Numbered from the stretch's first letter, positions 22,405-47,782 are shown. The stretch: 59,344 nt of DNA from an uncultured Clostridia bacterium (GCA_934132805.1 CAKPAB010000002.1:1-59344); one strand, 5' to 3'. Translations and numbers: made by a program. Notes: a model not told the origin generated them from the sequence alone.

Positions 22405-22741
22405 GAAAAAAATAATTATAGTTATAATACTTATATTAATCTTTAAGATAAGTATTTCATTTATTACAGCATTAAATAATAATGATATAGTCTTGTTTCA
22501 GAACGGAAAAATTATAGATTACAAAGATGAGTTTAACTTAAAGAAATATTTAAGTTATAATATTAAAGCATTTTTAGCATCTTTAAATGATAATGAAATA
22601 TTAATTGAAAGTGATAATGATGTAATATATGGTCTGACAGCTAATATAAAATACAAAATTAAAAAAAATGATACAAATAAAGAATATTACTTGGTAATAA
22701 ATGAAAAAAGATATAGCATAAATGAAGAGGAACGGAAATGA
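22394..22741 (+). CDS. Signal-anchor N-terminal segment, probably the true 5' part of the following dockerin protein (0 frame ends 2 codons after in-frame CGG 22733)
   Basis: MLNKKKIIIVIILILIFKISISF signal/TM segment. The ORF overlaps the next ORF by 20 nt in the +1 relationship. Confidence 0.55.
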   Translation: MLNKKKIIIVIILILIFKISISFITALNNNDIVLFQNGKIIDYKDEFNLKKYLSYNIKAFLASLNDNEILIESDNDVIYGLTANIKYKIKKNDTNKEYYLVINEKRYSINEEERK

Positions 22742-25982: not shown

Positions 25983-26091
25983 ATGTAATCAAAACTTAAT
26001 ATAAACTATATTTACAACAAAAAATGAAAATGGTACAATATTAATATAATTTGCAAAAACAAATAAAAAATTGATATTGGAGAGATGAAAG

Positions 26092-26805
26092 ATGAAGAAA
26101 AATATAATTTTAAGCATATTTATGATAATAATATTATTAATAGCAAACATATCATTTGCAGAAGCAACACCAACAGCAGAAATAACAGCAACAGCGAATA
26201 AAACAACAATCGAAAGTACAGATAAAACTATAGAAGTAACAATATCATTAGGAAACATTAGTGGACTAGTAGAAACAGGAAATAACATAGTTCTAGCATA
26301 CGAAGGTACTTTAGAATATGACACAAACATGTTTGAATCTGTAACTGTACAAGGACAAAACGATTGGACAGCTATATATGAACCAACTACTAAAAAAATA
26401 ATAGGCGATACAACAACAGCCAAAGCCAATACAACAATTGCAAAATTAACATTTACTTTAAAAGACAATATAGCATCAGGAACAACTGGAACAATCAAAA
26501 TTAATAATGTAGTACTAACAGATGAAACAAATGAATTTACGTTTAATAAAACGATTACTGTTACAGCTAATGAAAAACAAGAGGAGAATAATAATACATT
26601 AGATGATAATACTGTAACAGGAAAAGATGAAAATAATATTATAGATAAAGTATCAAATAAAAATAATAATACAAGCGATCCTAGTCAAGCAAAAGGAAGT
26701 ATTCCTAAAGCAGGTATAAAAAATATTGTGATTTTAACTGCTTTGATTATTGTAATTACAGGTGCATTTAGCTTAATTAGATATAAAATGATAAAATTAA
26801 AATAA
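26092..26805 (+). CDS. Secreted cohesin-like domain protein with a C-terminal sortase-type anchor (IPKAG + TM + basic tail)
   Basis: Signal peptide MKKNIILSIFMIIILLIANISFA. A cohesin-like beta-sandwich pattern (IEVTISLGNISG...LAYEGTLEYDTNMFESVTV...IAKLTFTLKD...GTIKINNVVLTD). The C-terminus is SIPKAGIKNIVILTALIIVITGAFSLIRYKMIKLK. Confidence 0.55.
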   Translation: MKKNIILSIFMIIILLIANISFAEATPTAEITATANKTTIESTDKTIEVTISLGNISGLVETGNNIVLAYEGTLEYDTNMFESVTVQGQNDWTAIYEPTTKKIIGDTTTAKANTTIAKLTFTLKDNIASGTTGTIKINNVVLTDETNEFTFNKTITVTANEKQEENNNTLDDNTVTGKDENNIIDKVSNKNNNTSDPSQAKGSIPKAGIKNIVILTALIIVITGAFSLIRYKMIKLK

Positions 26806-26811
26806 ATATTC

Positions 26812-26843
26812 AACAACTCAAAATTAGTTTTGGGTTGTTTTTT
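26812..26843 (+). terminator. Rho-independent terminator
   Basis: Stem AACAACTCAAA / TTTGGGTTGTT (one G.U pair) followed by a T-run. Confidence 0.7.
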
Positions 26844-26924
26844 AAATTAAATTTTTTAAATGAGTTTTTGAATTAGTATACCAATAATTTTGAGTTAAGA
26901 TACATTGAATTTTATTTGAATATA

Positions 26925-26952
26925 TTGACATTTGTTAAATATATGATATAAT
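26925..26952 (+). promoter_or_regulatory. Near-consensus sigma-A promoter upstream of higB
   Basis: TTGACA (26925..26930), 16-nt spacer, extended -10 TGaTATAAT (TATAAT at 26947..26952). Confidence 0.5.
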
Positions 26953-26992
26953 AAAATTACCTTTTAGGTAATTTACAAAAAGAGGTGAAAAA

Positions 26993-27316
26993 TTGGAAAT
27001 ACAATTTGAAAATCAAAAAGTACAAAAGAGTATGAGCAATATGAAAGAACTTACTGCAAAAATAGGTTTATCAATGGCAAAAACTGTGAAGCAGAGATAT
27101 AATCAATTAGAAGCATGTGAAAATTTTGAACAATACATGAAAACTGGTTTAGGAGTACCGCATCCACTAAATGGCAACTTGAAAGAGTGTTATGCAATAA
27201 GAATAACCGGAAACTATAGATTAGTAGTTCAACCAGAGACATTAGGAAACAAAAAAATTATTATTAAAGGAGTGTTAGATTATCATGAAACCAAAAATGA
27301 ATGGATTATCCCTTGA
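26993..27316 (+). CDS. higB: Type II toxin, HigB-like (RelE/ParE superfamily, 'plasmid maintenance system killer' type)
   Basis: Motifs ...HPLNGNLKECYAIRITGNYRLVV...KGVLDYH, matching the HigB pattern (L.G....ys.ri...wRi.f......DYH). TTG start after AGAGGTGA. The ORF overlaps the antitoxin gene by 32 nt. Confidence 0.75.
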   Translation: MEIQFENQKVQKSMSNMKELTAKIGLSMAKTVKQRYNQLEACENFEQYMKTGLGVPHPLNGNLKECYAIRITGNYRLVVQPETLGNKKIIIKGVLDYHETKNEWIIP

Positions 27317-28376
27317 ATTTATAATACATCCAGGTGAAACATTAAAAGAAATACTAGAAGATAAAAATATGCTACAAGAAGAACTAGCAGAAAGAACAGG
27401 ATTTTCACCAAAACATATAAGTGAAGTTGTAAATGGGAAAAAAGGAATATCACCTAAACTAGCCAAAAGCTTAGAATATGTTTTTGGAATTCCAGCAACT
27501 TTTTGGATTAATTTACAAGGCATATATGATAAGGAGATAGTAGAATTTGAGGAAAAGAACAACATATCAAAAAATGAATTTGAAATAGCAAAAAAAATAA
27601 GGCCAGTATTAGAATATGCAGTAAAACTAAAGTTAATAGACAAGATTTCAAATGATACAGAAGGTGTATTAGTATCAAGAAATATATGTGGAGTACAAAA
27701 CTTAACTTATATGGAAAAAATATTAAGTAATCAAGTAGCATACAGAACGGCTACAAAGCAAAAAGTAAATCCATATATATTATATACATGGCAAAGAGTA
27801 TGTGAATTATTGGCAAAAAAAGAGAGTAATGCAAATTATTATAACAAAACAGTACTAATTAATAATTTAGAAAATATCAAAAAATTAATGTTTGAAGAAA
27901 ACCCAAATGAGATGATAAAAAAATTAAAAGATATTTTTAATGAATGTGGAATAACATTTGAATTAGTAAAACATTTCACAGGGGCACCAGTACAAGGATT
28001 TATAGAAAAAAAAGAAAATAGAATGATTTTATGTATGACAATAAGACAATCTTATGCAGATATTTTTTGGTTTACATTATTTCATGAAATTGGACATATT
28101 TTGAATGGTGACATAGAATATAACAAAATAGATTATTATGTGGAAAATGAAGAAAAAGAAAATGAAGCGGATGAATTTGCAAAGAATCTTTTAATTAACA
28201 AAGATGATTATAATAGTTATATCAATAAATCAGATTTTTCAAAAGAAAGTATAATCGCATTTTCAAAGAATCAAAAAGTTCAACCATATATTGTTATTGG
28301 AAGACTACAAAAAGACAAAAAAATTGAATATAATCAATATAGTGATTTAAAAGTAAGATACAAATATAAACAATGA
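27285..28376 (+). CDS. higA: HigA-type XRE helix-turn-helix antitoxin fused to an ImmA/IrrE (COG2856, M78-like) Zn-metallopeptidase domain
   Basis: The N-terminus HPGETLKEILEDKNMLQEELAERTGFSPKHISEVVNGKKGISPKLAKSLEYVFGIPATFWINLQ is a HigA HTH. The C-terminal half carries FTLFHEIGHIL (HExxH) plus the downstream EADEFA motif typical of ImmA/IrrE. Confidence 0.8.
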   Translation: MKPKMNGLSLEFIIHPGETLKEILEDKNMLQEELAERTGFSPKHISEVVNGKKGISPKLAKSLEYVFGIPATFWINLQGIYDKEIVEFEEKNNISKNEFEIAKKIRPVLEYAVKLKLIDKISNDTEGVLVSRNICGVQNLTYMEKILSNQVAYRTATKQKVNPYILYTWQRVCELLAKKESNANYYNKTVLINNLENIKKLMFEENPNEMIKKLKDIFNECGITFELVKHFTGAPVQGFIEKKENRMILCMTIRQSYADIFWFTLFHEIGHILNGDIEYNKIDYYVENEEKENEADEFAKNLLINKDDYNSYINKSDFSKESIIAFSKNQKVQPYIVIGRLQKDKKIEYNQYSDLKVRYKYKQ

Positions 28377-28604
28377 TATGATAGAAAATTTAGATGCAAA
28401 GTTTATGGGGGAATTTTGAATATTTTATTTGATTATATTGAGAAAAAAGATGAAGAAATAATAGATATTTTTGAAAAATGGATTTAGTTAGAAAAACTTA
28501 AAAAGAAAATCCAAAAATTTACAAAATTTTTTTTACAAAAACTATTGCACAAAAAAAGCTTAAATGCTATAATGATATCAGTTCAAAGAAAGGGAGGATT
28601 TTAA

Positions 28605-29129
28605 ATGAAAAAATTATTATCAGTAGCAATCATATTTGTAATGATAGCAGTACTAGTAGCAACAACTGTTAATGCAGCAACAAGTTCAACATTAGCAAAT
28701 GAACTATACACAATAGGAGCAAAATACGGAATGACATCAGCAGATAAAGTAAAAATAGAAAGATATTTAGCAGACAATGCAGTAACAGATGAACAAGCTA
28801 ACCAAGTATTAGCAAAAGCACAAGAAGCTGCAAAAATAATGGATGAAGCTGGAATAACAAATTACAGCAAATTATCAGCAGACAAAAAGAACAAATTAAA
28901 AACAATAGCTAACGAAGCAGCAAGTGTACTAGGATTAACATTAACATTCAAATCAGGAAATGTTGAAGTTTACAAAGATGGAAAGCTAATTGAAACATTA
29001 GGATCAAATAGCAATGGAAAATTAGTATACACTGGAAATAATACAAACATTATTTTAGTTGTTTCTTCAGTTGCAGTAGTAGCCCTAGCTGCCGGATTTG
29101 TAGCAAGAAAGAAAATTGCTAATGCCTAA
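28605..29129 (+). CDS. Secreted helical protein with a C-terminal membrane/sorting-like segment (LVYTG + TM + RKK)
   Basis: Signal peptide MKKLLSVAIIFVMIAVLVATTVNA. C-terminus KLVYTGNNTNIILVVSSVAVVALAAGFVARKKIANA. The ORF overlaps the sortase gene. Confidence 0.55.
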   Translation: MKKLLSVAIIFVMIAVLVATTVNAATSSTLANELYTIGAKYGMTSADKVKIERYLADNAVTDEQANQVLAKAQEAAKIMDEAGITNYSKLSADKKNKLKTIANEAASVLGLTLTFKSGNVEVYKDGKLIETLGSNSNGKLVYTGNNTNIILVVSSVAVVALAAGFVARKKIANA

Positions 29130-29739
29130 GTTCATTAAAAAGACAATAAAAGCAACTATTATTGACGTAATAGTTGCTTTATTAATTGCAACACTTATAA
29201 TAGTAAGCATACAACTATTTTTTGGGGCAAAAATAGAAGAAACAATATCACTTGTAAACAAGGTTGCAATAGACTTAAACCAAAAAGAAATAAAAGAAAC
29301 AACCATAAATAACGATAATAAAATAGAAAACTATCCAGAATATGGAACACAATACGCAACAATAGAAATACCAAAAATCGACATAAACCTTCCTGTTTAT
29401 TTTGGAGACACACTAGAAATATTAAAAAAAGGCGTAGGACACTCAAGCGGAAGCTACTTCCCAGGAGAAGGTGGTAGCATTATTTACATGGGACATAATT
29501 CAAAAAAAGTATTTAGAAGATTTTCAGAGCTACAAATTGGAAATGAAATAACCGTAAAAACAGATTACGGAGAATATAAATACAAAATTTATGACATGCA
29601 ATTAATAAAAGAAACAGAAATAGACAAATTACCAATTCAAAAAGAAAAAGAAATTTTAATGATATATACATGCTATCCATTTAACAATATAGGATATGCA
29701 ACACAAAGATATGTAGTATATGCAGAATTAGAAAAGTAG
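29116..29739 (+). CDS. Sortase (cysteine transpeptidase)
   Basis: N-terminal TM segment, His motif IIYMGHN, catalytic LMIYTCYPF (TLxTC-like) and a C-terminal QRYVVYA Arg. Confidence 0.85.
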   Translation: MLMPKFIKKTIKATIIDVIVALLIATLIIVSIQLFFGAKIEETISLVNKVAIDLNQKEIKETTINNDNKIENYPEYGTQYATIEIPKIDINLPVYFGDTLEILKKGVGHSSGSYFPGEGGSIIYMGHNSKKVFRRFSELQIGNEITVKTDYGEYKYKIYDMQLIKETEIDKLPIQKEKEILMIYTCYPFNNIGYATQRYVVYAELEK

Positions 29740-29754
29740 AAGGGAGATACAAAA

Positions 29755-30597
29755 TTGAAAAAGATTCTAAGATATATAATAGCAATTCTACTAACTATTG
29801 TAATAATAGCATTTTTATTAATAAATTTGTTATCTTCTACAATTCTAAGTGAACAATATATTTTAAGCAAATTAGAAGAAACAGATTACTATAATAAAAT
29901 GTATCAATATGTAGAATCAAGTTTCGAAAATTACATTTATCAATCAGGATTAGACGAAAACGTACTAGAAGATATAGTATCAAAAGAAAAGATAGAAAAA
30001 GACACCAAAATTATTATAGGAAATATATATGACGGCAGAAACGAAAAAATAGACACACAAGAAATAAAAGATAACTTAAATGCAAATATAAATAAAAGTT
30101 TAGGAAATAAAAAACTCAATACAACACAAAAAACAGCAATAGACACATTTATAGATGAAATAACAAATGAATATAAAACTGCCATGTCACACACAAACTA
30201 TGAACAACAAATAAATAACATATATTCAAAAGGAATAAAATATGTTAATATATTAAAAAAAGCATTGTTGATATCAATTGCAGTTCTAATAATTTTACTA
30301 ATAGTATTAAGCTTGACAAAAATATATAAAGTCTTTGCTATGGCAGGGATTTCAATGTTATCAAGTGGGATTTTATTTGGAATAACCAATTGGTATATAA
30401 CATCAAAAATAAAAATACAGACAATTACAATATTAAATGATGCAGTTTCAGATACTGTTAGAAATATTTTACAAGAAATAATGAACACAGTAAAAAATGA
30501 AGCAGTCATACTTACTTTAATAGGAATAATACTTATAATAATTCCTAGTCTAATACATTATTATAAAAATTCTAAAGAAGAAAAAATGCAAAAGTAA
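29755..30597 (+). CDS. Hypothetical membrane protein (280 aa)
   Basis: N-terminal TM segment, a soluble middle part and about 4 C-terminal TM segments. TTG start. No motif recognised. Confidence 0.5.
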   Translation: MKKILRYIIAILLTIVIIAFLLINLLSSTILSEQYILSKLEETDYYNKMYQYVESSFENYIYQSGLDENVLEDIVSKEKIEKDTKIIIGNIYDGRNEKIDTQEIKDNLNANINKSLGNKKLNTTQKTAIDTFIDEITNEYKTAMSHTNYEQQINNIYSKGIKYVNILKKALLISIAVLIILLIVLSLTKIYKVFAMAGISMLSSGILFGITNWYITSKIKIQTITILNDAVSDTVRNILQEIMNTVKNEAVILTLIGIILIIIPSLIHYYKNSKEEKMQK

Positions 30598-30681
30598 TAT
30601 GAAAGAACTAAAAAACATATAAAATTTTAGAAAAATCGATTGTTTTATAGCTCAATCTGTACTAAAAGGAAAGAGGGAAAA

Positions 30682-31392
30682 ATGGAAGAAATAGATTTAA
30701 AAGAATTATTAAGCTTATTTTGGAGCAAAAAAACACAAATAATATTGATAGTACTAATTTTTATGATATTAGGAGTAATTTATACAATAGGTTTTGTAAC
30801 ACCAATGTACAGTTCATCTACAACATTAGTATTAGCATCATCTAACAGCAATCAAGCAACAGCAAATACAATAACAGCAACAGACATAACAGTAAACTCA
30901 AAATTAGTATCAACATATAGTGAAATAGTAAAAAGCAAAAACATAATGAGACAAGTTATCTCAAATCTAGGAATAAAAATTGATGAAAACGCATTAAGAA
31001 AACATGTAACTGTAAGTTCAGTAAAAGACACAGAATTAATAGAAATAACAGTAACAAACGAAAATCCAAGTAATGCTTCAAAAATAGCAAACGAAATATC
31101 AAAAGTATTTATTGACAAAATTAAAGATATATACAATATAGAAAATATACAAATAGTTGACGAAGCAGAAGTAAGTACAGCACCATCAAATATAAATCAT
31201 ACAAAAGATGTAATAATATTTACATTAGTAGGAATAGTAGTAGCAATAGGATATGTATTAGTAGCAAATATGTTAGATACAACTATAAAATCAGCAGAAG
31301 AGGTTGAAAAGGAATTTAAAATACCAGTACTTGCAACAATACCATTATATAACTTTGAGCCTGCTAAAAACAAAGGAGGAAAAACAAAATAA
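30682..31392 (+). CDS. Polysaccharide chain-length determinant / tyrosine-kinase modulator (Wzz, CpsC/YveK type)
   Basis: MEEIDLKELLSLFWSKKTQIILIVLIFMILGVIYT..., a periplasmic helical domain and a C-terminal TM segment. It sits directly upstream of the BY-kinase. Confidence 0.85.
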   Translation: MEEIDLKELLSLFWSKKTQIILIVLIFMILGVIYTIGFVTPMYSSSTTLVLASSNSNQATANTITATDITVNSKLVSTYSEIVKSKNIMRQVISNLGIKIDENALRKHVTVSSVKDTELIEITVTNENPSNASKIANEISKVFIDKIKDIYNIENIQIVDEAEVSTAPSNINHTKDVIIFTLVGIVVAIGYVLVANMLDTTIKSAEEVEKEFKIPVLATIPLYNFEPAKNKGGKTK

Positions 31393-32345
31393 TGAAAATA
31401 AAAAAAGAACTTATAACACAAAGAGACCCAAAATCGCCAGTATCAGAGACATTTAGAACACTAAGGACAAACATACAATTCATGAATGCAAACAAAAAAT
31501 TAAAAACATTACTAGTAACATCAACTTTCCCAAGTGAAGGAAAAAGTTGGGTTGCAGCAAATTTAGCAGTCACATTTGCACAAGCAGATAACAAAGTAAT
31601 ATTGATAGATGCAGACATGAGAAAAGGAAGACAATACTCAATATTTGGAGTATCACCACGCCCAGGACTTTCTAATTACTTATCAGGAATGGATGTTCCA
31701 GAAGGTCAAGAGCCAGATATCACAAATTATCTACAAAAAACAGAGATAGAAAACTTATTAATAATGACAGCTGGAAACATACCACCAAATCCATCAGAAT
31801 TATTAGTGTCACCACAAATGACTAAATTATTAAGCGACTTAAAAGAAGCTTGTGACATAATAATAATAGATGGAACACCATGTGAACTAGTTACAGATTC
31901 AGTTATTTTATCAAGAATAGCAGACTCAACATTAATAGTTACAGCACACAAAGAAACAAAAAAAGACAATTTGGAAAGAGTAATAAAAAACATACAAAAC
32001 GTAGGTGGACATTTAGCAGGAATTGTATTAAACAAAATGTCTGTATCTGTAAAAAAATATAATGAAAAATATTATTATTATGGATCAACAGGAGCATCAC
32101 TTAGCCAAGCAAGTAGAAATGAAATAAAAGAAAAAGCATACAATATTTTAAAACAAAATGACAAAGACAATAATGAAAGAAAAAAAGAATATAATAATAT
32201 AAACATCGAAAAAGAAAGCAATTCAAACAATGATTTAGAAAGACCAAGTTTTGTAAATAATGGAACAGACTCAGAACTAGGAAAAGCACAAGATATATTA
32301 AAACAAATAAATTCATATTTAGATAATGAAAAGAAAAATTTATAA
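31392..32345 (+). CDS. Protein-tyrosine kinase (BY-kinase, CpsD/YwqD type) with a long C-terminal extension
   Basis: Walker A SEGKS, ILIDADMRKG, Walker B IIIDGTP and the Tyr cluster KYYYYG. About 86 further residues follow the Tyr cluster. Confidence 0.88.
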   Translation: MKIKKELITQRDPKSPVSETFRTLRTNIQFMNANKKLKTLLVTSTFPSEGKSWVAANLAVTFAQADNKVILIDADMRKGRQYSIFGVSPRPGLSNYLSGMDVPEGQEPDITNYLQKTEIENLLIMTAGNIPPNPSELLVSPQMTKLLSDLKEACDIIIIDGTPCELVTDSVILSRIADSTLIVTAHKETKKDNLERVIKNIQNVGGHLAGIVLNKMSVSVKKYNEKYYYYGSTGASLSQASRNEIKEKAYNILKQNDKDNNERKKEYNNINIEKESNSNNDLERPSFVNNGTDSELGKAQDILKQINSYLDNEKKNL

Positions 32346-32373
32346 TAGAAACAGAAGAAAGAGGAGAGCAGAA

Positions 32374-33174
32374 ATGATAGACTTTCATACACATATATTG
32401 CCAAATATAGATGACGGAGCAAGAAATATAGATGAAACAATAGAACTAATAAAGGAAGCCAAAGAAGCAGGCTTTGACGAAATAATACTAACATCACATT
32501 ACATCGAAAATTACTATGAAACAGACGTACCAGAAAGAGATATGTGGGTAAAAGCTATAAGTGATAATTTAAAAGGAAAAGGAATAGAAACAAACTTATA
32601 TTTAGGAAATGAAATTTATATATCAGATAATATGATGCAATTATTAATAGATGGAAAAGCATCAACTATAAATAATAGTTGCTATGTTTTATTTGAAATG
32701 CCACTAAATGCAGAGCCAATGGATTTATATAATGTAATATATTCTTTGCAAGAGAATAAACTAATACCAGTATTAGCACATCCAGAAAGATATTCATTTG
32801 TACAAAAAGAGCCAGAATTAATATATGATTTAATAGAAAAAGGTGTATTAATGCAAGCAAATTATGGAAGTATTTTAGGACAATATGGAAAAAATGCCGA
32901 AATGATAGTAAGAAAATTTTACGAAAACAATATGATACATTTTTTAGGAAGTGACGTTCACAGAGCAAATACAATATACAAAAAAATACCAGAAGCAATT
33001 GAAGAAATTAGTGCAATTATAGGAGAAGAAAAAGTAAAAGAATTAACAACAACAAACCCAAAATTAGTTTTACAAAACAAAAGAATAGATATTGATGACC
33101 CAATAGAATTTAGTTTAACATTAAAAGAAAAGATAATAATGACTTTAAAAAAATTATCTAGAAGGGAAGTATAA
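32374..33174 (+). CDS. PHP-family protein-tyrosine phosphatase (CpsB/YwqE type)
   Basis: MIDFHTHILPNIDDGA..., LAHPERY and GSDVH motifs. Start at ATG 32374 after GAGGAG. Confidence 0.88.
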   Translation: MIDFHTHILPNIDDGARNIDETIELIKEAKEAGFDEIILTSHYIENYYETDVPERDMWVKAISDNLKGKGIETNLYLGNEIYISDNMMQLLIDGKASTINNSCYVLFEMPLNAEPMDLYNVIYSLQENKLIPVLAHPERYSFVQKEPELIYDLIEKGVLMQANYGSILGQYGKNAEMIVRKFYENNMIHFLGSDVHRANTIYKKIPEAIEEISAIIGEEKVKELTTTNPKLVLQNKRIDIDDPIEFSLTLKEKIIMTLKKLSRREV

Positions 33175-33176
33175 TT

Positions 33177-34541
33177 ATGAGAAAATATTTTGGAACAGAT
33201 GGAATAAGAAGAATTGCAAACACAGAACTTACACCAGAGTTAGTATATAAAGTAGCAAAAGCAGGTGCATATGTATTATCAAAACACACAGATCATGCAC
33301 CAACAATATTAATAGGAAGAGACACAAGAATATCAGGAACACTAATAGAAAGTGCAATGGTAGCAGGATTTTTAAGTTATGGAGCAAATGTTAAATTATT
33401 AGGAGTTATACCAACACCAGCAGTTGCTTATTTAACAAGAAAATTACAAGCAGATGCAAGTGTAGTAATATCAGCATCACATAATACATTTGAATTTAAT
33501 GGAATAAAATATTTTAGCAATAAAGGTATGAAAATTCCAGATAGTCTAGAAGAAGAAATAGAAGAAGTAATGGACTCAGGCAAAATCGACGAATTAACAG
33601 CAGTAAGCAGCAAAATAGGCATATCTGAATATAGAGCAGACTTACTAGACGAATATGTTTATTTCTTTAGAAAAAACTTTGATGATATTTTTGAAAAATT
33701 AAATAGAGATGATTTTGTAGTAGGTGTGGACACAGCAAATGGCGCAACATCAGTAGTAGCTGAAAAAGTATTTAAAGCATTAGGCATAAAATATAAAATA
33801 ATAAATAACCATCCAGATGGAATAAACATAAACGAAAATTGTGGATCAACACATTTAGAATCATTAAAAAAATTCGTAATAGAAAACAAACTAAGCCTTG
33901 GAGTTGCATATGATGGTGACGGAGATAGATGTTTAGCAGTTGACGAAAAAGGAAACGAAATAGATGGAGATATGATAATGGCAATTGTATCAAACTATCT
34001 AAAGAAAAAAGGAAAGTTATCAAAAGACACAGTTGTTGCAACAGTAATGAGTAACTTAGGATTACACAAATATACTAGAGACAATGGATTAGAACTTGTT
34101 CAAACAAAAGTAGGAGACAGATATGTATTAGAAGAAATGCTAAAAGATGGATATAATCTAGGAGGAGAACAATCAGGACATGTAATTTTACTAGATTATA
34201 ACCCAACTGGAGACGGAATATTAACATCATTAATGTTAATACAAGCGATATTAGAAGAAAAAGAAACTGCATCAAAAATGGCAGAAATAATAAAATTATA
34301 TCCACAAGTATTAATAAATGCAAAAGTGAACTCAGAGAAAAAATATGATTACGAAAAAGATGATGAAATAAAAAGTGCAATAGAAAAACTAGAAAAAGAA
34401 TTTGCAGGAAATGGTAGAGTACTAATAAGACCTTCTGGAACAGAGCCATTAGTAAGGGTTATGATTGAAGGAGAAGACCAAGAATATATAACTAAAAAAG
34501 CAAAAGAAATTGCAGATTTAATAGAAGAAAAATTAAAATAA
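33177..34541 (+). CDS. glmM: Phosphoglucosamine mutase
   Basis: GTDGIRR, active-site SASHN, DGDGDR and GGEQSGH motifs. Confidence 0.95.
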   Translation: MRKYFGTDGIRRIANTELTPELVYKVAKAGAYVLSKHTDHAPTILIGRDTRISGTLIESAMVAGFLSYGANVKLLGVIPTPAVAYLTRKLQADASVVISASHNTFEFNGIKYFSNKGMKIPDSLEEEIEEVMDSGKIDELTAVSSKIGISEYRADLLDEYVYFFRKNFDDIFEKLNRDDFVVGVDTANGATSVVAEKVFKALGIKYKIINNHPDGININENCGSTHLESLKKFVIENKLSLGVAYDGDGDRCLAVDEKGNEIDGDMIMAIVSNYLKKKGKLSKDTVVATVMSNLGLHKYTRDNGLELVQTKVGDRYVLEEMLKDGYNLGGEQSGHVILLDYNPTGDGILTSLMLIQAILEEKETASKMAEIIKLYPQVLINAKVNSEKKYDYEKDDEIKSAIEKLEKEFAGNGRVLIRPSGTEPLVRVMIEGEDQEYITKKAKEIADLIEEKLK

Positions 34542-40701: not shown

Positions 40702-41571
40702 ATGAAAAATATAGATGAAATTTTAAGATATTTTCCAAATAAAATATATCAAATTTTTTTTAATTTATTTCAAGAGAATAATAAAATTATAGATGAATTA
40801 CAAGAAATTAGAATTAGGACAAATAGACCAGTAATTTTAAAATTACGTGAAAAAGACTTAATATTACAATATAATGTGCCACAAACAGAAATATTACAAA
40901 TAGTAGAAAGATTATGTGAAAACTCAATATATGCATATAAAAATCAAATATGTGAGGGGTTTATAACAATAAAAGGAGGACATCGTGTTGGATTAACAGG
41001 GACATGCGTTATAGAAAATGAAAAAATAGCGAATGTAAAGTACATATCAAGCTTAAATATACGAATAGCTAGAGAAGTTTTAAATTGTAGTACAAGAGTA
41101 CTAAGAGAAATAATAGACATAGAAAATAAATCAATATACAATACAATTTTAGTAGCTCCTCCAGGAAGAGGAAAAACTACGATGTTACGTGATGTTATAA
41201 GAAGATTGAGCAATGGCATTGAGGAGATAAATTTTAGAGGAAAAACCTGTGGTGTTGTAGATGAAAGAGGAGAAATTGCGTCTATGTATAAGGGTGTTCC
41301 TCAGAATGATGTTGGAATAAGAACAGATGTAATTGAGAATGTTAGTAAAAATCAAGGAATTCGTATGCTTGTAAGAACTATGGCACCTGAAATTGTTGCT
41401 TGTGATGAGATTGGGAGTAGCGATGATGTTGAAGCTATTCATTATGCGTTATATTCAGGTGTAAAAGGAATTTTTACGATGCATGGAAAGAATATTGAAG
41501 ATATAAAGAATAATAAGAAAATTTATGAATTAATAGAAAATAGAGAAATTCAAAAAATAGTATTCTTATAA
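40702..41571 (+). CDS. spoIIIAA: Stage III sporulation protein AA-like AAA+ ATPase (no spoIIIAB-AH downstream)
   Basis: ITIKGGHRVGLTG, NIRIAREV, Walker A PPGRGKTTMLRD, VVDERGEIA and Walker B VACDEIG, collinear with B. subtilis SpoIIIAA. Confidence 0.85.
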   Translation: MKNIDEILRYFPNKIYQIFFNLFQENNKIIDELQEIRIRTNRPVILKLREKDLILQYNVPQTEILQIVERLCENSIYAYKNQICEGFITIKGGHRVGLTGTCVIENEKIANVKYISSLNIRIAREVLNCSTRVLREIIDIENKSIYNTILVAPPGRGKTTMLRDVIRRLSNGIEEINFRGKTCGVVDERGEIASMYKGVPQNDVGIRTDVIENVSKNQGIRMLVRTMAPEIVACDEIGSSDDVEAIHYALYSGVKGIFTMHGKNIEDIKNNKKIYELIENREIQKIVFL

Positions 41572-41749
41572 TTTGAAAATCAATTTTAAGATAAGGAATA
41601 CAATGTATGCAAAATGTATATAAAAACATATGCAAAAAGCATAAGAAAAATGCTGGAAAGTATTGCAAAAGAAAATGTGGTATATTATAATATAATTGCA
41701 AATACGACATTTAATGTCATAAAAAGAGGTATCTACAAAGGAGGAAAAT

Positions 41750-41863
41750 ATGAAAAAGAGATATAACACAGGAATAACATTGGTGGCATTGGTTTTGACA
41801 ATCATTATTTTGTTGATATTAGCAGGAATATCAATATCAGCATTAACAAATACAGGAATATAA
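41750..41863 (+). pseudogene. Truncated pilin-like-leader gene fragment (37 codons)
   Basis: MKKRYNTGITLVALVLTIIILLILAGISISALTNTGI*. It has the same leader and hydrophobic helix as the RCC1 proteins at 42412 and 44325, and a strong RBS AAAGGAGG. The full-length paralogues continue (FARANDAKTK...) where this fragment stops. Confidence 0.6.
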
Positions 41864-41882
41864 AGATATACCATGCATTTAT

Positions 41883-42161
41883 ATGTATGGAGGTTATGAT
41901 GTTTTAAACAATGGATTCTTGAATGATTATAATTATGTAAGACAATTTGAAAAAGTTTATATAATGGATAAAAAGCTATTTTTACCAATTAAAGTAGAAG
42001 ATATTTTAAAAGAGGTAAATACAGATAATGGAATCATTTTTATAGATTACAAAGAAAAAATAAATAAAAGAGCAATGATGATAATAAATCAAATAGAAAA
42101 ATTTTCAAATTATGAAGAAATAATGCAAATAAATGATTTTTCAATATATAGAATATATTAA
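41883..42161 (+). CDS. Hypothetical 92-aa ORF (possibly the leftover 3' part of a degraded gene)
   Basis: ORF only; no RBS or motif recognised. Confidence 0.3.
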   Translation: MYGGYDVLNNGFLNDYNYVRQFEKVYIMDKKLFLPIKVEDILKEVNTDNGIIFIDYKEKINKRAMMIINQIEKFSNYEEIMQINDFSIYRIY

Positions 42162-42171
42162 GTTATAAACT

Positions 42172-42209
42172 AAAACCAACAAATACTGTAAAAGTAGGAG
42201 TTGGTTTTT
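42172..42209 (+). terminator. Candidate terminator
   Basis: Stem AAAACCAAC / GTTGGTTTT with an internally paired loop, followed by Ts. Confidence 0.5.
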
Positions 42210-42264
42210 ATATTACAAAAATATTTCAAATATTTTACAATTTTGTATCAAAATACCAAAAATA

Positions 42265-42294
42265 TTGATAAGTATATTAAGAGTATGATATACT
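42265..42294 (+). promoter_or_regulatory. Candidate sigma-A promoter of the first pilin-leader::RCC1 gene
   Basis: TTGATA (42265..42270), 18-nt spacer, TGaTATACT (TATACT at 42289..42294). A leader of about 115 nt follows. Confidence 0.4.
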
Positions 42295-42790
42295 CTAATC
42301 ACAAGAAAAGAGGGGTGATACATATGAAAAATATAAAATTAAACATAAAAAATTAAATATAATCAAAAATTATTTTAAAGTTTAATATTATTTATATCAG
42401 GAGGTTAGCAAATGAATAAAAAAATAGAAATACAAAATAATGAAAAAATATTAAAAAATAAAAAAGGTATAACACTAATCGCATTAGTAATCACAATTAT
42501 TATATTGCTAATACTAGCAGGAATAAGCATATCAGCATTAACACATACAGGAATATTTGCAAGAGCAAATGATGCAAAAACAAAAACAGCAATGTCGCAA
42601 GAAGATGAAAGTGTAAAAATGGCAGTATCAAGTGCGTTAATAGAAGGAGAAGGAGAATTAACAACAAAAAATTTACAAGATGCATTTACAAAAAGCAATT
42701 TAAATGGATCATTAACAGGAAATGGACCATGGACATATACAGGTGAATATGGCGAATACGATATAGAAAAAAATGGAAATTTAACAGCTA
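42290..42790 (+). repeat. Shared 5' module (leader + first ~125 codons), copy 1
   Basis: Near-identical to 44107..44703, apart from a ~100-bp insertion in copy 2 and a few substitutions. Confidence 0.85.
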
Positions 42791-44097
42791 ACGGAAAAGA
42801 CGAAAGCACAAATGACGAAGTAGTAAAAGTAATGGGAAATTATGGAGTTACTAAAAAAGAAAAAATTGTTTCATTGATATTTAACAACGAAGAAACAAAC
42901 ACGTGGAAGGAAGTAAATATTGGACAAGAAATAACTGAAATAGGGACTGTAAAAAAGATGTATCAAGAAGGAAGTTCATATTATGTAATAAACACCAAAG
43001 GAGATGTCTATGCATGGGGATTGAACTTTAGCGGAAGACTAGGGATTGGAAATATGGACGACCAAGAGTCACCTAAAAAGATAAGTGAGTTATCAAATGT
43101 TGAGGATATATATACAAGTAATTATACAAGATTTGCAAAAACAACAACAGGAGATGTATATGCGTGGGGAGACAATGGCAGTAACCAACTAGGAATAGGA
43201 AATGAAGATGATCAATATTCACCGGTAAAAATAACAAACTTACCAAAAGTAGATAAAATATATGCAGAGGAATCTAACACATATGCTATAACAACAGCAC
43301 ATGAAATATATGTGTGGGGAGCCAATTATTCTGGCCAATTAGGAATAGGAAATACAGAAAATCAGAATGCGCCAGTAAAAATAACAAATTTAACAAATAT
43401 AGATGAAATATATGTGAATAGATCTAATGCATATGCTAAAACAACAACAGGAGAAGTCTATGCATGGGGATATAATAACTATGGCCAATTAGGAATAGGA
43501 AATACAGAAAATCAGAATGCACCAGTAAAAATAACAAATTTAACAAATATAGATGAAATATATGCAAATGGATCTAATGCATATGCTAAAACAACAACAG
43601 GAGAAATGTATGCATGGGGATATAATAACTATGGCCAATTAGGAATAGGAAATACAGAAAACCAGAGTACACCAGTAAAAATGAATACAATAAAAAACAT
43701 AAAATATTTAAGCGGAGGAAATAGCATTAGTGCAATAACAGAGACAGGAGAAATATATGTATGGGGAAATAATGAAAATGGACAGCTAGGAATAGGAAGT
43801 ACAGAAAACCAAAGTACACCAGTAAAAAGGGATACAGTAAATAATGTTGAAGAAATGTTATTTTTATCTACAGAAGGAGTTGACTATATAAAAACAACAG
43901 CAGGAGACATATACTTGTGGGATGGTGACGATAGTGAGTTAGGAATAGAAGATACATCAGGAAATAATAAACCAATATCTTGGAATAATCAAAAAATAAC
44001 GAATATATATTCAAACAAGGAATTAGCAGGAAATAGCAATATTATATGGACAAATGATGGAAAAATATATAGATACTATTATGGAGAGCCAATGTAG
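42412..44097 (+). CDS. Prepilin-like N-terminal leader/helix fused to a 7-blade RCC1-repeat beta-propeller (561 aa)
   Basis: N-terminus MNKKIEIQNNEKILKNKKG|ITLIALVITIIILLILAGISI (type IV pilin-like, but Ala instead of Glu at +5). Seven units of the form YAWGxNxxGQLGIGNxxxQxxPVKI. Confidence 0.8.
   Translation: MNKKIEIQNNEKILKNKKGITLIALVITIIILLILAGISISALTHTGIFARANDAKTKTAMSQEDESVKMAVSSALIEGEGELTTKNLQDAFTKSNLNGSLTGNGPWTYTGEYGEYDIEKNGNLTANGKDESTNDEVVKVMGNYGVTKKEKIVSLIFNNEETNTWKEVNIGQEITEIGTVKKMYQEGSSYYVINTKGDVYAWGLNFSGRLGIGNMDDQESPKKISELSNVEDIYTSNYTRFAKTTTGDVYAWGDNGSNQLGIGNEDDQYSPVKITNLPKVDKIYAEESNTYAITTAHEIYVWGANYSGQLGIGNTENQNAPVKITNLTNIDEIYVNRSNAYAKTTTGEVYAWGYNNYGQLGIGNTENQNAPVKITNLTNIDEIYANGSNAYAKTTTGEMYAWGYNNYGQLGIGNTENQSTPVKMNTIKNIKYLSGGNSISAITETGEIYVWGNNENGQLGIGSTENQSTPVKRDTVNNVEEMLFLSTEGVDYIKTTAGDIYLWDGDDSELGIEDTSGNNKPISWNNQKITNIYSNKELAGNSNIIWTNDGKIYRYYYGEPM
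43332..43631 (+). repeat. Two near-identical 150-bp tandem units (RCC1 blades) in gene 1
   Basis: TGGCCAATTAGGAATAGGAAATACAGAAAATCAGAATGC... recurs at 43332, 43482 and 43632, a period of 150 bp. Confidence 0.85.
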
Positions 44098-44106
44098 ATT
44101 AATCAC

Positions 44107-44703
44107 ATACTCTAATCACAAGAAAGGGTGATACATATGAAAAAGATGTACGTTAGAACTCTTGGGGCTGTAGAGAGAGCGCGCACGCTACACTTTAGAA
44201 AGCTATAAAAAAGCGTACAGCGTAATAGAGCTAAGAAAACTGATAATATAAAATTAAACATAAAAATAAATATAATCAAAAATTATTTTAAAGTTTAATA
44301 TTATTTATACTAGGAGGTTAGCAGATGAATAAAAAAATAGAAATAAAAAATAATGAAAAAATATTTAAAAATAAAAAAGGTATAACACTAATAGCATTAG
44401 TAATCACGATTATTATATTGCTAATACTAGCAGGAATAAGCATATCAGCATTAACACATACAGGAATATTTGCAAGAGCAAATGATGCAAAAACAAAAAC
44501 AGCAATGTCGCAAGAAGATGAAAGTGTAAAAATGGCAGTATCAAGTGCGTTAATAGAAGGAGAAGGAGAATTAACAACAGAAAATTTACAAGATGCATTT
44601 ACAAAAAGCAATCTAAATGGTCCATTAACAGGAAATGGACCATGGACATATACAGGGGATTATGGTGAATATGAGATAGAAAAAAATGGCAATATAACAA
44701 CAA
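44107..44703 (+). repeat. Shared 5' module, copy 2 (carries the 44145..44246 insertion)
   Basis: Aligned by eye to 42290..42790. Confidence 0.85.
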
Positions 44704-46163
44704 CTGCTAAAGGAACAGATGATAAAGTTATAAGCTTGATAGGAGGCTATGGAATTACAGAAAGCAAAAAACTTGTAGAAATAGGAAAACCCCGCATGGA
44801 GCCTCTTACTTGGGGAGAAACTGAAATTGGGGAAGAAATATCTGAAGTAGGAAAAATAAAAGAGATGTATGACAATAATCAAAGCTGGTATGTAATTAAT
44901 AGTAATGGAGAAATATATGCATGGGGATATAATTTTAACGGACAATTGGGAATAGGAAATACAGAATACCAAAGCACACCAGTAAAAATAGAAGGACTAA
45001 AAGATGTAGAAAAAATATATGTTAATGATGATACAGTATATGCGAAGACAACGAATAAAGAAATATATGCATGGGGGAATAATGATAATGGACAATTAGG
45101 AATAGAAAATATAGAATACCAAAGCACACCAGCAAAAATAGGTGGATTAACAAATGTAGAGGAAATATATATGTGTTTTGATAGTATATATGTCCAAACA
45201 ACAAATAAAGAAATATACGCATGGGGAAAGAACAACAATGCACAATTAGGAATAGGAAATACAGAAAAACAAAGTGTGCCAGTAAAAATAGAAGGATTAA
45301 CAAACGTAAAAGAAATATATGCTGAAAATTCTTCTATATATGCCCAAATGACAAATGGAGAAGTATATGCATGGGGAAACAATAGTTATGGACAATTAGG
45401 TATAGGAAATACAACAAATCAAAGTAGGCCAGTAAAAATAGAAGGATTAACAAACGTAAAAGAAATATATGCTGAAAATTCTTCTATATATGCCCAAATG
45501 ACAAATGGAGAAATATATGTATGGGGAAACAATAATGATGGACAATTAGGCATAGGAAATACAACAAATCAAAGTAGGCCAGTAAAAATAGAAGGACTAA
45601 CAAATGTAGAACAAATATATATGGGGTTTATTACAGTATATGCTAAAACAACAGGTGGAGAAGTATATGCATGGGGATGGAATTCTGGTGGAAAATTAGG
45701 AATAGGAAACACCGAAAACCAAAGTGCACCAGTAAAAATAGAAGGTTTAGAAAATGTAGATGAAATATATATTTATAATAATAGCATATATGCTAAAATG
45801 ACAAATGGAGAAATGTATGCATGGGGAAGAAATGATGAAGGACAATTAGGCATAGGAAATACAACAGATCAAATTATACCAGTAAAAATAGAGGGGATAA
45901 CAAATCTGGATGAAATATATACTGGTTATAATCTATATGTTAAAACAACAGATGGGAAAATGTATGCATGGGGAAGAAATGGCGAAGGACAATTAGGAAT
46001 AGGAAACACCGAAAACCAAAGTGCACCAGTAAAGATAGAAGGATATGGCAATACACAAAAAGTGAATAAATTTTATATTAGCGGCGGTAGTCAAACTACA
46101 ATAAATATTCTTACAAAAGATGGAAAAATATATACATGGTTATCAGACATGAGACCTATTTAA
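44325..46163 (+). CDS. Prepilin-like N-terminal leader/helix fused to an 8-9-blade RCC1-repeat beta-propeller (612 aa), paralogue of 42412..44097
   Basis: The first ~118 residues are nearly identical to the upstream paralogue. RCC1 units of the form YAWGNNxxGQLGIGNTxxQSxPVKIEGL. Confidence 0.8.
   Translation: MNKKIEIKNNEKIFKNKKGITLIALVITIIILLILAGISISALTHTGIFARANDAKTKTAMSQEDESVKMAVSSALIEGEGELTTENLQDAFTKSNLNGPLTGNGPWTYTGDYGEYEIEKNGNITTTAKGTDDKVISLIGGYGITESKKLVEIGKPRMEPLTWGETEIGEEISEVGKIKEMYDNNQSWYVINSNGEIYAWGYNFNGQLGIGNTEYQSTPVKIEGLKDVEKIYVNDDTVYAKTTNKEIYAWGNNDNGQLGIENIEYQSTPAKIGGLTNVEEIYMCFDSIYVQTTNKEIYAWGKNNNAQLGIGNTEKQSVPVKIEGLTNVKEIYAENSSIYAQMTNGEVYAWGNNSYGQLGIGNTTNQSRPVKIEGLTNVKEIYAENSSIYAQMTNGEIYVWGNNNDGQLGIGNTTNQSRPVKIEGLTNVEQIYMGFITVYAKTTGGEVYAWGWNSGGKLGIGNTENQSAPVKIEGLENVDEIYIYNNSIYAKMTNGEMYAWGRNDEGQLGIGNTTDQIIPVKIEGITNLDEIYTGYNLYVKTTDGKMYAWGRNGEGQLGIGNTENQSAPVKIEGYGNTQKVNKFYISGGSQTTINILTKDGKIYTWLSDMRPI
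45241..45540 (+). repeat. Near-identical 150-bp tandem units (RCC1 blades) in gene 2
   Basis: GACAATTAGG recurs at 45391 and 45541. An ~82-bp stretch (AGTAAAAATAGAAGGATTAACAAACGTAAAAGAAATATATGCTGAAAATTC...) is identical at 45281 and 45431. Confidence 0.85.
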
Positions 46164-46182
46164 TGAACTTTAAAGTTATTAC

Positions 46183-46212
46183 AAAAAGCGAATTTTATAC
46201 AATTCGCTTTTT
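46183..46212 (+). terminator. Rho-independent terminator
   Basis: Stem AAAAAGCGAATT / AATTCGCTTTTT with a 6-nt loop and a T-run. Confidence 0.8.
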
Positions 46213-46339
46213 ATTTGGCACTTACCAAAAAAGTATAAATTAATATCCAGTAAATTTAAATTTGACTTATTATTCTAATAGCCTAGATTTTATAAACAAG
46301 AAGTGATATAATAGCAAAAAACAAAAGAAGGTAATAAAA

Positions 46340-47782
46340 ATGAAAAAAATAAACGGAACAATAATGCAATATTTCGAATGGTACATGGAAAGCAACCAAA
46401 CACTATGGAAACAAGTAAAAAAAGAAGCAGAAAAACTAGCAAAAATAGGAGTAACAGCCATGTGGCTACCACCAGCATACAAAGGAGCAGGAGGAAAAGA
46501 CGAAGTAGGATATGGAGTATATGACGTATACGATTTAGGCGAATTCGACCAAAAAGGAACAATAAAAACAAAATATGGCTCAAAAGAAGAATATCTAGAA
46601 GCAATAATAGCATTAAAACAAGCAGGAATAGAAAGTTATGCAGACATCGTCCTAAATCACAAAATGGGAGCAGACGCCCTACAAACAATACCAGCAACAA
46701 AAGTCGACTGGTCAAACCACAATATAGAAACATCACAAAAAGAAACAGTACAAGTAGCAACTAAATTCACATTTCCAGGAAGAAAACACAAATATTCAGA
46801 CTTCGAATGGAACTGGACAGACTTTGACGGAATAGACTATAATAATAAAACAGGAGAAAATGCAATATTCAAATTTATCAATAAAAAATGGGGAGAAGAA
46901 GTTGACGAAGAATATGGAAACTTTGACTATTTAATGGGAGCAGATTTAGACTTTTCAAACCCAAGAGTAGTAAAAGAATGCATTGATTGGGGAAAATGGT
47001 ACTTAGACATAACAAAAGTAGATGGTTTTAGATTAGACGCAGTAAAACATATAGATGCTGATTTCTATGAAAAATGGATACAAACATTAAGAAAAGAAAG
47101 CAAAAAAGAACTATTCGCAGTAGGGGAATATTGGTCAGCAGATGTAAACAAACTACACAAATACATAACAGAAACAGAAGGAAAAATATCATTATTTGAT
47201 GTACCATTACACTATAATTTTTACACAGCATCAAATGAGCCAAATTACAACATGTCACAAATATTAGATCATACACTAGTAAAAGAAAATTCATGCATGG
47301 CAGTAACATTTGTAGACAACCATGACACACAGCCAGGCCAGGCATTACAAAGCTATGTTCAAGAATGGTTTAAGCCAATAGCATATTCAATTATATTGTT
47401 AAGAAACGAGGGATACCCATGTGTATTCTATGGTGACTATTATGGAATACCACATGACAAAATACAACCTGATAAAAATCTACAAACATTAATGATAATA
47501 AGAAAAGACAAGTCATATGGTTTACAACATGACTATTTTGACAATAATAATTATATAGGATGGACTCAAGAAGGAGACGATGAACACATAAATTCAGGAA
47601 TAGCAGTAGTAATTTCTAATGCAGGAGATGGATATAAAAGAATGTATGTTGGAAACCAAAACATAGGAGAAACATATATAGATGGACTCGGAAACTGTGA
47701 AGAAGAAGTTACTATAGAAGAAGACGGATGTGGAAACTTTGGAGTCAAATCAAGAAGTGTATCTGTCTGGATAAAAAAATAA
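46340..47782 (+). CDS. Alpha-amylase, GH13 (no signal peptide, so probably cytoplasmic)
   Basis: NGTIMQYFEWY, DIVLNH, GFRLDAVKHI, EYW and FVDNHD conserved regions. Confidence 0.9.
   Translation: MKKINGTIMQYFEWYMESNQTLWKQVKKEAEKLAKIGVTAMWLPPAYKGAGGKDEVGYGVYDVYDLGEFDQKGTIKTKYGSKEEYLEAIIALKQAGIESYADIVLNHKMGADALQTIPATKVDWSNHNIETSQKETVQVATKFTFPGRKHKYSDFEWNWTDFDGIDYNNKTGENAIFKFINKKWGEEVDEEYGNFDYLMGADLDFSNPRVVKECIDWGKWYLDITKVDGFRLDAVKHIDADFYEKWIQTLRKESKKELFAVGEYWSADVNKLHKYITETEGKISLFDVPLHYNFYTASNEPNYNMSQILDHTLVKENSCMAVTFVDNHDTQPGQALQSYVQEWFKPIAYSIILLRNEGYPCVFYGDYYGIPHDKIQPDKNLQTLMIIRKDKSYGLQHDYFDNNNYIGWTQEGDDEHINSGIAVVISNAGDGYKRMYVGNQNIGETYIDGLGNCEEEVTIEEDGCGNFGVKSRSVSVWIKK

Follow-up and report, generated by a model that had tools for sequence, protein, structure and literature searches.

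Tandem genes from an uncultured gut Clostridia bacterium probably encode modular type IV pilins with an RCC1-like propeller and alanine in place of glutamate 5

Modular type IV pilins, in which a pilin module is joined through a linker to a non-pilus domain, were defined from the structure of Streptococcus sanguinis PilB, and more than 1,200 such proteins with 264 architectures have been catalogued (Raynaud et al. 2021, PMC8179133). Dataset S1 of that study lists several singleton architectures that combine N_methyl with RCC1, together with 18 + 6 proteins that combine N_methyl with IPR026906 (PMC8179133). Here we analysed a stretch of 59,344 nucleotides from an uncultured Clostridia bacterium (GCA_934132805.1 CAKPAB010000002.1:1-59344; hereafter the window), which originates from a human gut metagenome and has a guanine plus cytosine (G+C) content of about 27%. 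Two adjacent genes on the + strand, gene A (42412..44097, 561 amino acids) and gene B (44325..46163, 612 amino acids), which a preliminary description had placed at these positions, were confirmed as open reading frames (ORFs). Both encode modular pilin-like proteins, in which a leader and a hydrophobic helix are followed by a small head, a linker and an RCC1 propeller. We consider it probable that they are modular type IV pilins carrying an RCC1 effector.

In gene A the leader peptide (42412..42468, + strand, residues 1-19) is MNKKIEIQNNEKILKNKKG, with a predicted prepilin-peptidase site at G19|I20 (the bar marks the cleavage site), and the pilin module (42469..42786, + strand, residues 20-125) starts with the α1-N helix ITLIALVITIIILLILAGISI, which has Ala at mature position 5 (Ala5). 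In gene B, also on the + strand, the leader (residues 1-19) is at 44325..44381 and the pilin module (residues 20-125) at 44382..44699. The two proteins thus have a pilin module, a linker and a non-pilus domain, as the definition of a modular pilin has it, insofar as the pilin module is accepted as such. The evidence for accepting it comes from related genomes.

Seven loci of related uncultured Clostridia (L017, L027, L029, L041, L068, L070 and L088) have members of the same family inside a conserved type IV pilus operon. These members are 130-154 amino acids long, mostly form tandem pairs and share the N-terminus KG|ITLIALVITIIVLLILAG; they begin MxNxKG|ITLIALVITIIVLLILAGVSIAMLTGxNGIL. The operon opens with a 546-residue PilM/N-type fusion (PilN, 5e-5), followed by two small membrane proteins, orf241 and orf145, and then by the Ala5 pilin or pilins. 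Next come a 270-residue protein with two invariant Asp residues that matches A24_N_bact (2e-29), the N-terminal domain of bacterial A24 prepilin peptidases; orf140 (140 amino acids, canonical signal KG|FTGIE); orf150 (150 amino acids, KG|VTLIS); PilB (T2SSE 4e-104, TIGR02538 1.5e-126, with an MshEN domain); PilT (TIGR01420, 1e-94); and, last, PilC (T2SSF, 8e-29). The locus L088:7143-16754 is an example of such a type IVa-like operon with tandem small Ala5 pilins.

Over the first 21 mature residues the window proteins and the operon pilins agree at 19, the differences being Ile/Val exchanges at +12 and +19, and both groups score the same 18 bits against N_methyl. Because this N-terminus sits in type IVa-like pilus operons, it is taken to be the pilin N-terminus of the clade, and because small relatives with the same N-terminus lie in these operons, genes A and B are read as modular type IV pilins. 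The claim of the preliminary description that the proteins have a class III pilin-type N-terminus with Ala at +5 is therefore supported. It is probable that the small operon members are the major pilin of the clade. If the 140-residue protein that bears Glu5 were the major subunit, the Ala5 family would consist of tip pilins or initiator pilins, in keeping with the known rule on subunits lacking Glu5. Operons and orphan long members of the family occur in the same metagenome-assembled genomes (MAGs), namely CAUWEX (L088, L037), CAUWGA (L068, L030) and CANRCM (L029, L048). We infer that the window genome has a pilus operon as well.

The following route can be proposed for the products of genes A and B. 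The preprotein would enter the membrane, where the prepilin-peptidase-like enzyme of the clade would cut off the leader at the predicted G|ITLIA site. The type IVa machinery (PilB, PilC, PilM/N and PilT), presumably encoded elsewhere in the genome, would then take up the mature subunit via α1-N. Finally the pilus would show the subunit beyond the cell wall, at its tip or along its shaft. The RCC1 propeller is most probably a ligand-binding or adhesive effector module.

This arrangement resembles S. sanguinis PilB and PilC, in which a small pilin module and a short linker precede a bulky non-pilus domain, a von Willebrand factor A (vWA) domain in PilB and a lectin domain in PilC (PMC8179133; Shahin et al. 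2023, PMC9934059). A monoderm host, type IVa-like machinery with PilT, tandem small pilin genes in the operon and a predicted role in adhesion or ligand binding are further points in common. However, the pil operon contains the genes for PilB and PilC, whereas genes A and B are orphans far from pilus genes. PilB has Glu at +5, whereas the window genes have Ala and stay below the thresholds of the standard pilin models. The module here is an RCC1 propeller, and the family comprises tens of thousands of clusters, unlike the case of PilB and PilC. Modular pilins are thus already known, and the combination of N_methyl with RCC1 is catalogued but unstudied; the differences here are the Ala5 module, the size of the family with its orphan genes, and the lack of Glu5 even in the probable major pilins of the clade. 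The preliminary description had called the combination of RCC1 with a pilin-type N-terminus not known to be characterised. It is indeed uncharacterised, but it is listed in Dataset S1 of Raynaud et al. 2021.

The N-terminal sequence was compared in an alignment of 55 relatives, which shows a basic leader, a conserved Gly and the motif ITLIALVITII(V/I)LLILAG(I/V)SI..LTG.NGIL..A..AK..T, with 8 invariant positions, 11 more that are at least 90% conserved, and unrelated sequence beyond the small head. A short basic leader ending in Gly at -1 is present (MNKKIEIQNNEKILKNKKG| in A and B, MKKRYNTG| in a truncated copy upstream); G19 is at least 90% conserved in the 55 proteins, and position -2 is Lys or Arg in 96 of 116 ORFs. 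The hydrophobic stretch of about 21 residues (ITLIALVITIIILLILAGISI) follows the cleavage site directly. In a Sec signal peptide the hydrophobic core spans 7-15 residues, and an AxA-type site for signal peptidase I comes after it. The hydrophobic run of the window proteins, as read from their sequence, is at least 22 residues long and no AxA follows it, which does not correspond to a cleavable Sec-type signal.

Structure prediction with AlphaFold2 (AF2) for residues 1-196, based on the family alignment, gave helices at 18-45 and 48-78, kinked at T46-G47; taking this model and the full-length one together, their limits are 16/18-45 and 47/48-78. The kinked α1 has 59 residues. A short helix (85-94) and a four-stranded sheet (about 100-128) follow, and the predicted local distance difference test score (pLDDT) exceeds 90 for residues 60-125. 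The layout of this modelled head fits a small pilin. The preliminary description had a helical stalk of about 100 residues at this place; the model instead predicts a pilin head at residues 20-125 and then a β-rich linker of about 60 residues.

Several observations weigh against the assignment of genes A and B as pilins. Glu at mature +5 is absent, with Ala in A, B, the truncated copy and at least 90% of the 55 aligned proteins; this set was collected by protein search and not by motif, whereas the scan pattern for the genome loci itself required Ala5. According to a recent review, Glu5 docks the subunits of bacterial type IV filaments by a salt bridge between them, and solely the cap subunit lacks it (PMC10191384). 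N_methyl (PF07963) gave 18.0-18.1 bits, below its cutoff of 21.2, and no NCBIfam pilin model matched A or B at E<=0.01; these scores fall below the thresholds because Ala5 takes the place of Glu5. In Foldseek searches with the 196-residue N-terminal model the best pilin match was Thermus PilA5 at E=0.55, which is not significant, and in a PDB profile search the pilins MshA and S. sanguinis PilE1 ranked first at a likewise non-significant E of about 0.3. The peptidase-like operon protein gave no match to the catalytic Pfam domain Peptidase_A24 even at E<=5. The orphan members have housekeeping neighbours; no pilus gene lies within 8-10 kb of four annotated relatives or of the window genes, and the whole 59-kb window has neither pilus-assembly genes nor a prepilin peptidase, as the preliminary description had stated. 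Finally, some relatives are split by frameshifts. Of the checks proposed in that description, the profile search succeeded for RCC1 (PF00415 far above threshold) and not for N_methyl, and structure prediction gave a pilin-like topology in A and a propeller matching UVR8, whereas the Foldseek matches to pilins were not significant.

The sub-threshold N_methyl score, the missing Glu5, the lack of NCBIfam matches and the non-significant structural matches would also be seen if the N-terminus were a plain uncleaved signal anchor of type II topology, whose likeness to pilins is purely compositional. However, the 55 aligned proteins show no or almost no change at G-1, I+1, T+2 and L+3, and about 22 helix residues are near-invariant in a family of 23,566 clusters with otherwise unrelated sequence. 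A generic anchor gives no reason for such conservation, and the same sequence is found in seven operons on small proteins encoded between pilMN/orf145 and the peptidase-like gene. The conservation of the helix in the alignment is typical of pilin α1-N and not of a plain membrane anchor. We therefore give the plain anchor very little credence.

It is less improbable, though still unlikely, that the proteins are cleaved like pilins and never polymerised, so that they are held in the membrane via α1-N or form short pseudopilus-like stubs, as a general surface anchor for binding proteins and enzymes, comparable to the sugar-binding proteins with class III signals in the archaeal bindosome. Glu5 is missing in every family member seen, and the family genes are scattered away from the pilus operon. 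Many paralogues have enzyme-like or toxin-like C-termini (FGE-sulfatase, PT-HINT, dockerin), and it is hard to see all of these as structural subunits. On the other hand, the small operon members share the Ala5 N-terminus and are obvious candidates for the major pilin, and the extension and retraction ATPases of the operon point to real filaments. In addition, a membrane-held protein of 560 residues with a linker of about 60 residues would barely clear the Gram-positive wall. Assembly of the products of genes A and B into a pilus is the reading that we prefer.

The family to which the two proteins belong is large. A protein search with residues 1-198 found 1,960 relatives; those among the matches listed are 109-346 amino acids long, and very few have a Pfam domain. 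When a profile of the 55 relatives was run against 1.84 billion representative proteins, the matching clusters, counted at 50% identity, numbered 23,566 at E<=1e-10 and 32,401 at E<=1e-3. At least 454 relatives came from a scan of one genome per GTDB species, which did not return the window species and whose best locus had 42% identity across the module. The best 80 loci were all from assemblies of uncultured Clostridia, Clostridium sp. or Eubacteriales, nearly all of them MAGs; the isolate names include human, rabbit and chicken samples. Some genomes have several loci, and the family counts at least 3-5 genes per genome in several sampled MAGs. No paper with the motif ITLIALV was found in the literature, and nothing specific on major pilins lacking Glu5 in Clostridia. 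The Ala5 signal eludes the models used in the census of Raynaud et al.

The C-terminal parts of 79 long members were compared with Pfam. Many had no match and the rest were highly diverse: BspA-type leucine-rich repeats (LRR_5) in 12, FGE-sulfatase-like domains in 6, RCC1, LRR_8, GLUG and DUF285 in 3 each, and Dockerin, PT-HINT, fn3, Big_2, PKD and Laminin_G_3 in 1 each. Such diversity is to be expected of modular pilins. The locus L007:12078-13859 (fragments 10001-11279) has a member of 593-596 amino acids in which PT-HINT (4.7e-22) lies behind the pilin module; to judge from its sequence, polymorphic-toxin cargo may also be attached to this module.

These findings allow a wider and more speculative proposal, which we regard as possible though doubtful. 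This clade of uncultured, low-G+C gut Clostridia may build type IVa pili with major subunits that lack Glu5, and the near-invariant Ala5 helix may serve as a universal plug for interchangeable cargo, with several to many such proteins in each genome (RCC1, LRR, dockerin, FGE-sulfatase, PT-HINT), with the pilus acting as a platform for surface display and delivery and with A, B and an unlinked paralogue as its alternative heads. If this is true, the pilus of a Gram-positive cell is a display or delivery platform and not a simple adhesive fibre, and modular pilins, of which few have hitherto been studied, are a dominant class of surface proteins in widespread uncultured gut bacteria. A name and a testable secretion route would then be at hand for tens of thousands of clusters that are annotated as hypothetical and whose pilin signal is slightly too weak for the thresholds of the models. 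The accepted role of Glu5 in the docking of subunits would be challenged by a bacterial type IVa pilus that lacks this residue. Pili with RCC1, LRR and toxin modules would suggest as yet unexplored ways of binding to hosts, fibre or other bacteria. The wider interest thus lies in the size of a hidden family and in a putative pilus whose subunits lack Glu5.

Other systems are also comparable in part. Glu5 is likewise absent from the tip or cap minor pilins of the GspK and PilK type, large pilin-like subunits that are thought to lie at the filament tip with no further subunit above them (PMC10191384). However, the extra domain of GspK lies inside the pilin β-sheet, and GspK is operon-encoded and partnered with the I and J subunits; moreover, in the present clade the apparent major pilins also lack Glu5. 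The tip adhesins PilY1/PilC of diderm type IVa pili resemble the window proteins in that a β-propeller is shown by the pilus for adhesion. PilY1, however, is no pilin but is attached through the minor-pilin complex, and its propeller is of another family (IPR008707). Archaeal proteins with class III signals are large functional proteins that have a pilin-type signal without Glu5 and many scattered paralogues, like the window family. They differ in belonging to another domain of life, in their peptidase, PibD/FlaK, and in an unrelated motif. The preliminary description had likened the locus to adhesin or tip-pilin loci of the variable type; the comparison with tip and modular pilins is apt, whereas the likeness to antigenic variation is unsupported, as discussed below.

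The linker or neck of gene A (42787..42966, + strand, residues 126-185) is β-rich and conserved across the pilin::RCC1 subfamily, and that of gene B is at 44700..44879 (+ strand, residues 126-185). They are followed by the RCC1-like β-propellers at 42967..44094 in gene A (+ strand, residues 186-561) and 44880..46160 in gene B (+ strand). RCC1 (PF00415) matched with 1e-68 and 228 bits in A and 9e-91 and 299 bits in B, and WD40_RLD (PF25390) with 1e-70 and 239 bits in A and 6e-91 and 306 bits in B. A DNA repeat of 150 nucleotides is present in 6 copies in A and 8 in B. Judged by the number of WG motifs, A has 7 blades, whereas the repeats of B amount to 8 and a closing strand.

The full-length AF2 model of gene A had a mean pLDDT of 83 and a predicted template modelling score of 0.72, with pLDDT mostly above 90 in the propeller. 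In Foldseek searches this propeller matched UVR8 (1.7e-29), HERC2, RPGR and RCC1 (1e-29 to 1e-20, 22-28% identity). It thus resembles UVR8, the RCC1-like domain (RLD) of HERC2, RPGR and RCC1 in its seven-bladed fold, whereas the cellular context of these eukaryotic proteins is unrelated, and the function that can be transferred is at most that of an interaction platform. A full-length search found at least 28 cluster representatives in which leader, pilin, linker and RCC1 are all present. A protein of another lineage, P0209, combines the canonical signal EKG|FSLIELIVV with RCC1. P0209 and the catalogued proteins with N_methyl (IPR012902) and RCC1 (IPR000408/PF13540) share with the window proteins a pilin-type N-terminus followed by RCC1 repeats. 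The catalogued ones differ in having the canonical G|F(T/S)LxE and in being singletons of other lineages; they are experimentally unstudied.

Genes A and B share a 5' module, which the preliminary description had already noticed and which proved to be real. The near-identical tract extends over 42331..42786 in gene A and 44246..44699 in gene B (96% nucleotide identity). Codons 1-125 are 96% identical, and 92% identical at third positions; after codon 125 these values fall to about 59-65% and 53-57%, and this drop falls where the predicted pilin module ends. The tract includes the 5' leaders with their ribosome-binding sites (42331..42411 in A and 44246..44324 in B, + strand), which are near-identical to each other. 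Farther upstream a 40-nucleotide motif, ATACTCTAATCACAAGAAA(AGA)GGGGTGATACATATGAAAAA, lies at 42290..42330 (+ strand) before gene A, and the same motif lies at 44107..44144 (+ strand) before gene B. The match across about 0.5 kb described previously holds for the tract, whereas upstream of it the match is interrupted in gene B by about 101 nucleotides (44145..44245, + strand).

This G+C-richer segment of about 101 nucleotides is missing upstream of gene A and is present upstream of an unlinked third pilin::RCC1 paralogue, P0123 (609 amino acids, L095:8001-9830, contig NODE_377 of ERZ4562116). Because the third paralogue has the same 101 nucleotides, the difference is due to a loss from gene A and not to an insertion at gene B. 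The contig of P0123 and that of the window have similar coverage in the same two samples (10.49 vs 10.06 and 5.43 vs 5.16), and because of this match P0123 very probably belongs to the window genome. P0123 carries the whole 5' cassette, with the upstream motif and the 101 nucleotides; nucleotide identity to A and B is about 89.5% in its module and 66-73% further downstream. Among 97 loci the shared leader was found only in genes A, B and P0123. The module is thus homogenised at synonymous sites among three paralogues.

A truncated family member upstream of gene A (41750..41863, + strand) was confirmed as the third copy of leader and helix that had been described. It has 37 codons for an 8-residue leader, MKKRYNTG, and 29 residues of α1-N, followed by a stop; a strong ribosome-binding site, AAGGAGG, lies upstream. 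Its homology to the full genes stops at 41861, with 79-80% nucleotide identity across 99 nucleotides. In a six-frame motif search the G|ITL(I/V)ALV N-terminus occurred in exactly 3 copies in the window. Similar relics of leader and helix with 41-42 codons occur at L024:8894, L034:16463 and 18376, and L087:519, with breakpoints that vary from +17 to +29.

The homogenised module and the truncated 5' copy could be taken as signs of programmed antigenic or phase variation, in which the 5' cassette and the truncated copy serve as substrates for swapping propellers, as in Neisseria pilE/pilS. Two further observations would fit such a system. In a strain with 99.2% nucleotide identity (L097:4416-5951) gene A lacks exactly one 150-nucleotide repeat and encodes 511 instead of 561 amino acids, and frameshifts occur in relatives. 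However, the lost repeat could reflect either real variation in blade number or a collapse of short-read assembly. The geometry is also opposite to that of pilE/pilS: no silent promoterless 3' copies are present, and the sole partial copy contains the constant 5' portion instead of a silent variable 3' portion. Genes A and B are each complete and have a ribosome-binding site and a leader of their own, and no recombinase or invertase lies near them.

The preliminary description had proposed a comparison of strains for propeller turnover, and 13 kb of the locus are 100% identical to a contig from a Hadza metagenome (L002), without any variation. In other tandem pairs from related genomes the level of similarity, whether high or low, is uniform throughout; the sharp mosaic is therefore a peculiarity of the RCC1 paralogues of the window species. 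No programmed variation system was found at the locus, and we regard this explanation as highly improbable. The near-identity of module and leader among the three paralogues indicates gene conversion or module exchange, and the observations on variation as a whole also indicate repeat instability. More distant relatives of the pilin::RCC1 type at L090:10001-11532, L092:360-2038, L093 and L094 are split into 2-3 consecutive ORFs, reproducibly across samples; they are pseudogenes or genes that require a frameshift.

The regulatory sequences of the locus were also inspected. Rfam gave no match in 41000..46600 at E<=1, and the shared leader is therefore not a known RNA. The 101-nucleotide segment had no Rfam match and a weak folding signal (z-score -2.1). 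As a repeat or mobile element it was rejected, being single-copy in the window and found otherwise only in the species' own paralogues. Small upstream ORFs were rejected as leader peptides, since their reading frame is not preserved from gene B to the third paralogue; one that starts at 44137 extends into the 101-nucleotide segment, and its frame is not conserved. A weak promoter candidate for gene A is located at 42265..42294 (+ strand; TTGATA, 18 nucleotides, TATACT, with an extended -10 TG), and a promoter scan found no more sites than in shuffled controls. After gene B a hairpin with a T-run was read from the sequence at 46183..46216 (+ strand; AAAAAGCGAATT...AATTCGCTTTTTATTT), which is likely a terminator. 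A terminator scan was not above background and did not report this hairpin. No comparable hairpin lies downstream of gene A.

As to the surroundings, a 65.6-kb ENA scaffold is identical to the window. No phage or plasmid context was found at the locus itself, phage and plasmid collections not being part of the search. Orthologues of window genes lie within 10 kb of family genes at L028, L050, L052 and L065. They occupy differing slots, and this synteny was dropped as chance proximity because several family genes per genome make it expected by chance. Upstream of the pilin-like genes, spoIIIAA (40702..41571; TIGR02858, 9e-89) stands isolated, and spoIIIAB to spoIIIAH do not follow. After it come the truncated pilin copy, a 92-residue ORF without a Pfam match (41883..42161) and then both pilin::RCC1 genes. 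The sporulation operon of the window organism is thus split or decayed. A long surface-polysaccharide cluster with a G+C content of 20-26% occupies 12134..34541 and includes Bac_transf, several glycosyltransferases, Wzy, a flippase, Wzz and CpsB. Toward its downstream end it encodes a 1086-residue protein with a weak dockerin match (22722..25982) and a sortase (29116..29739).

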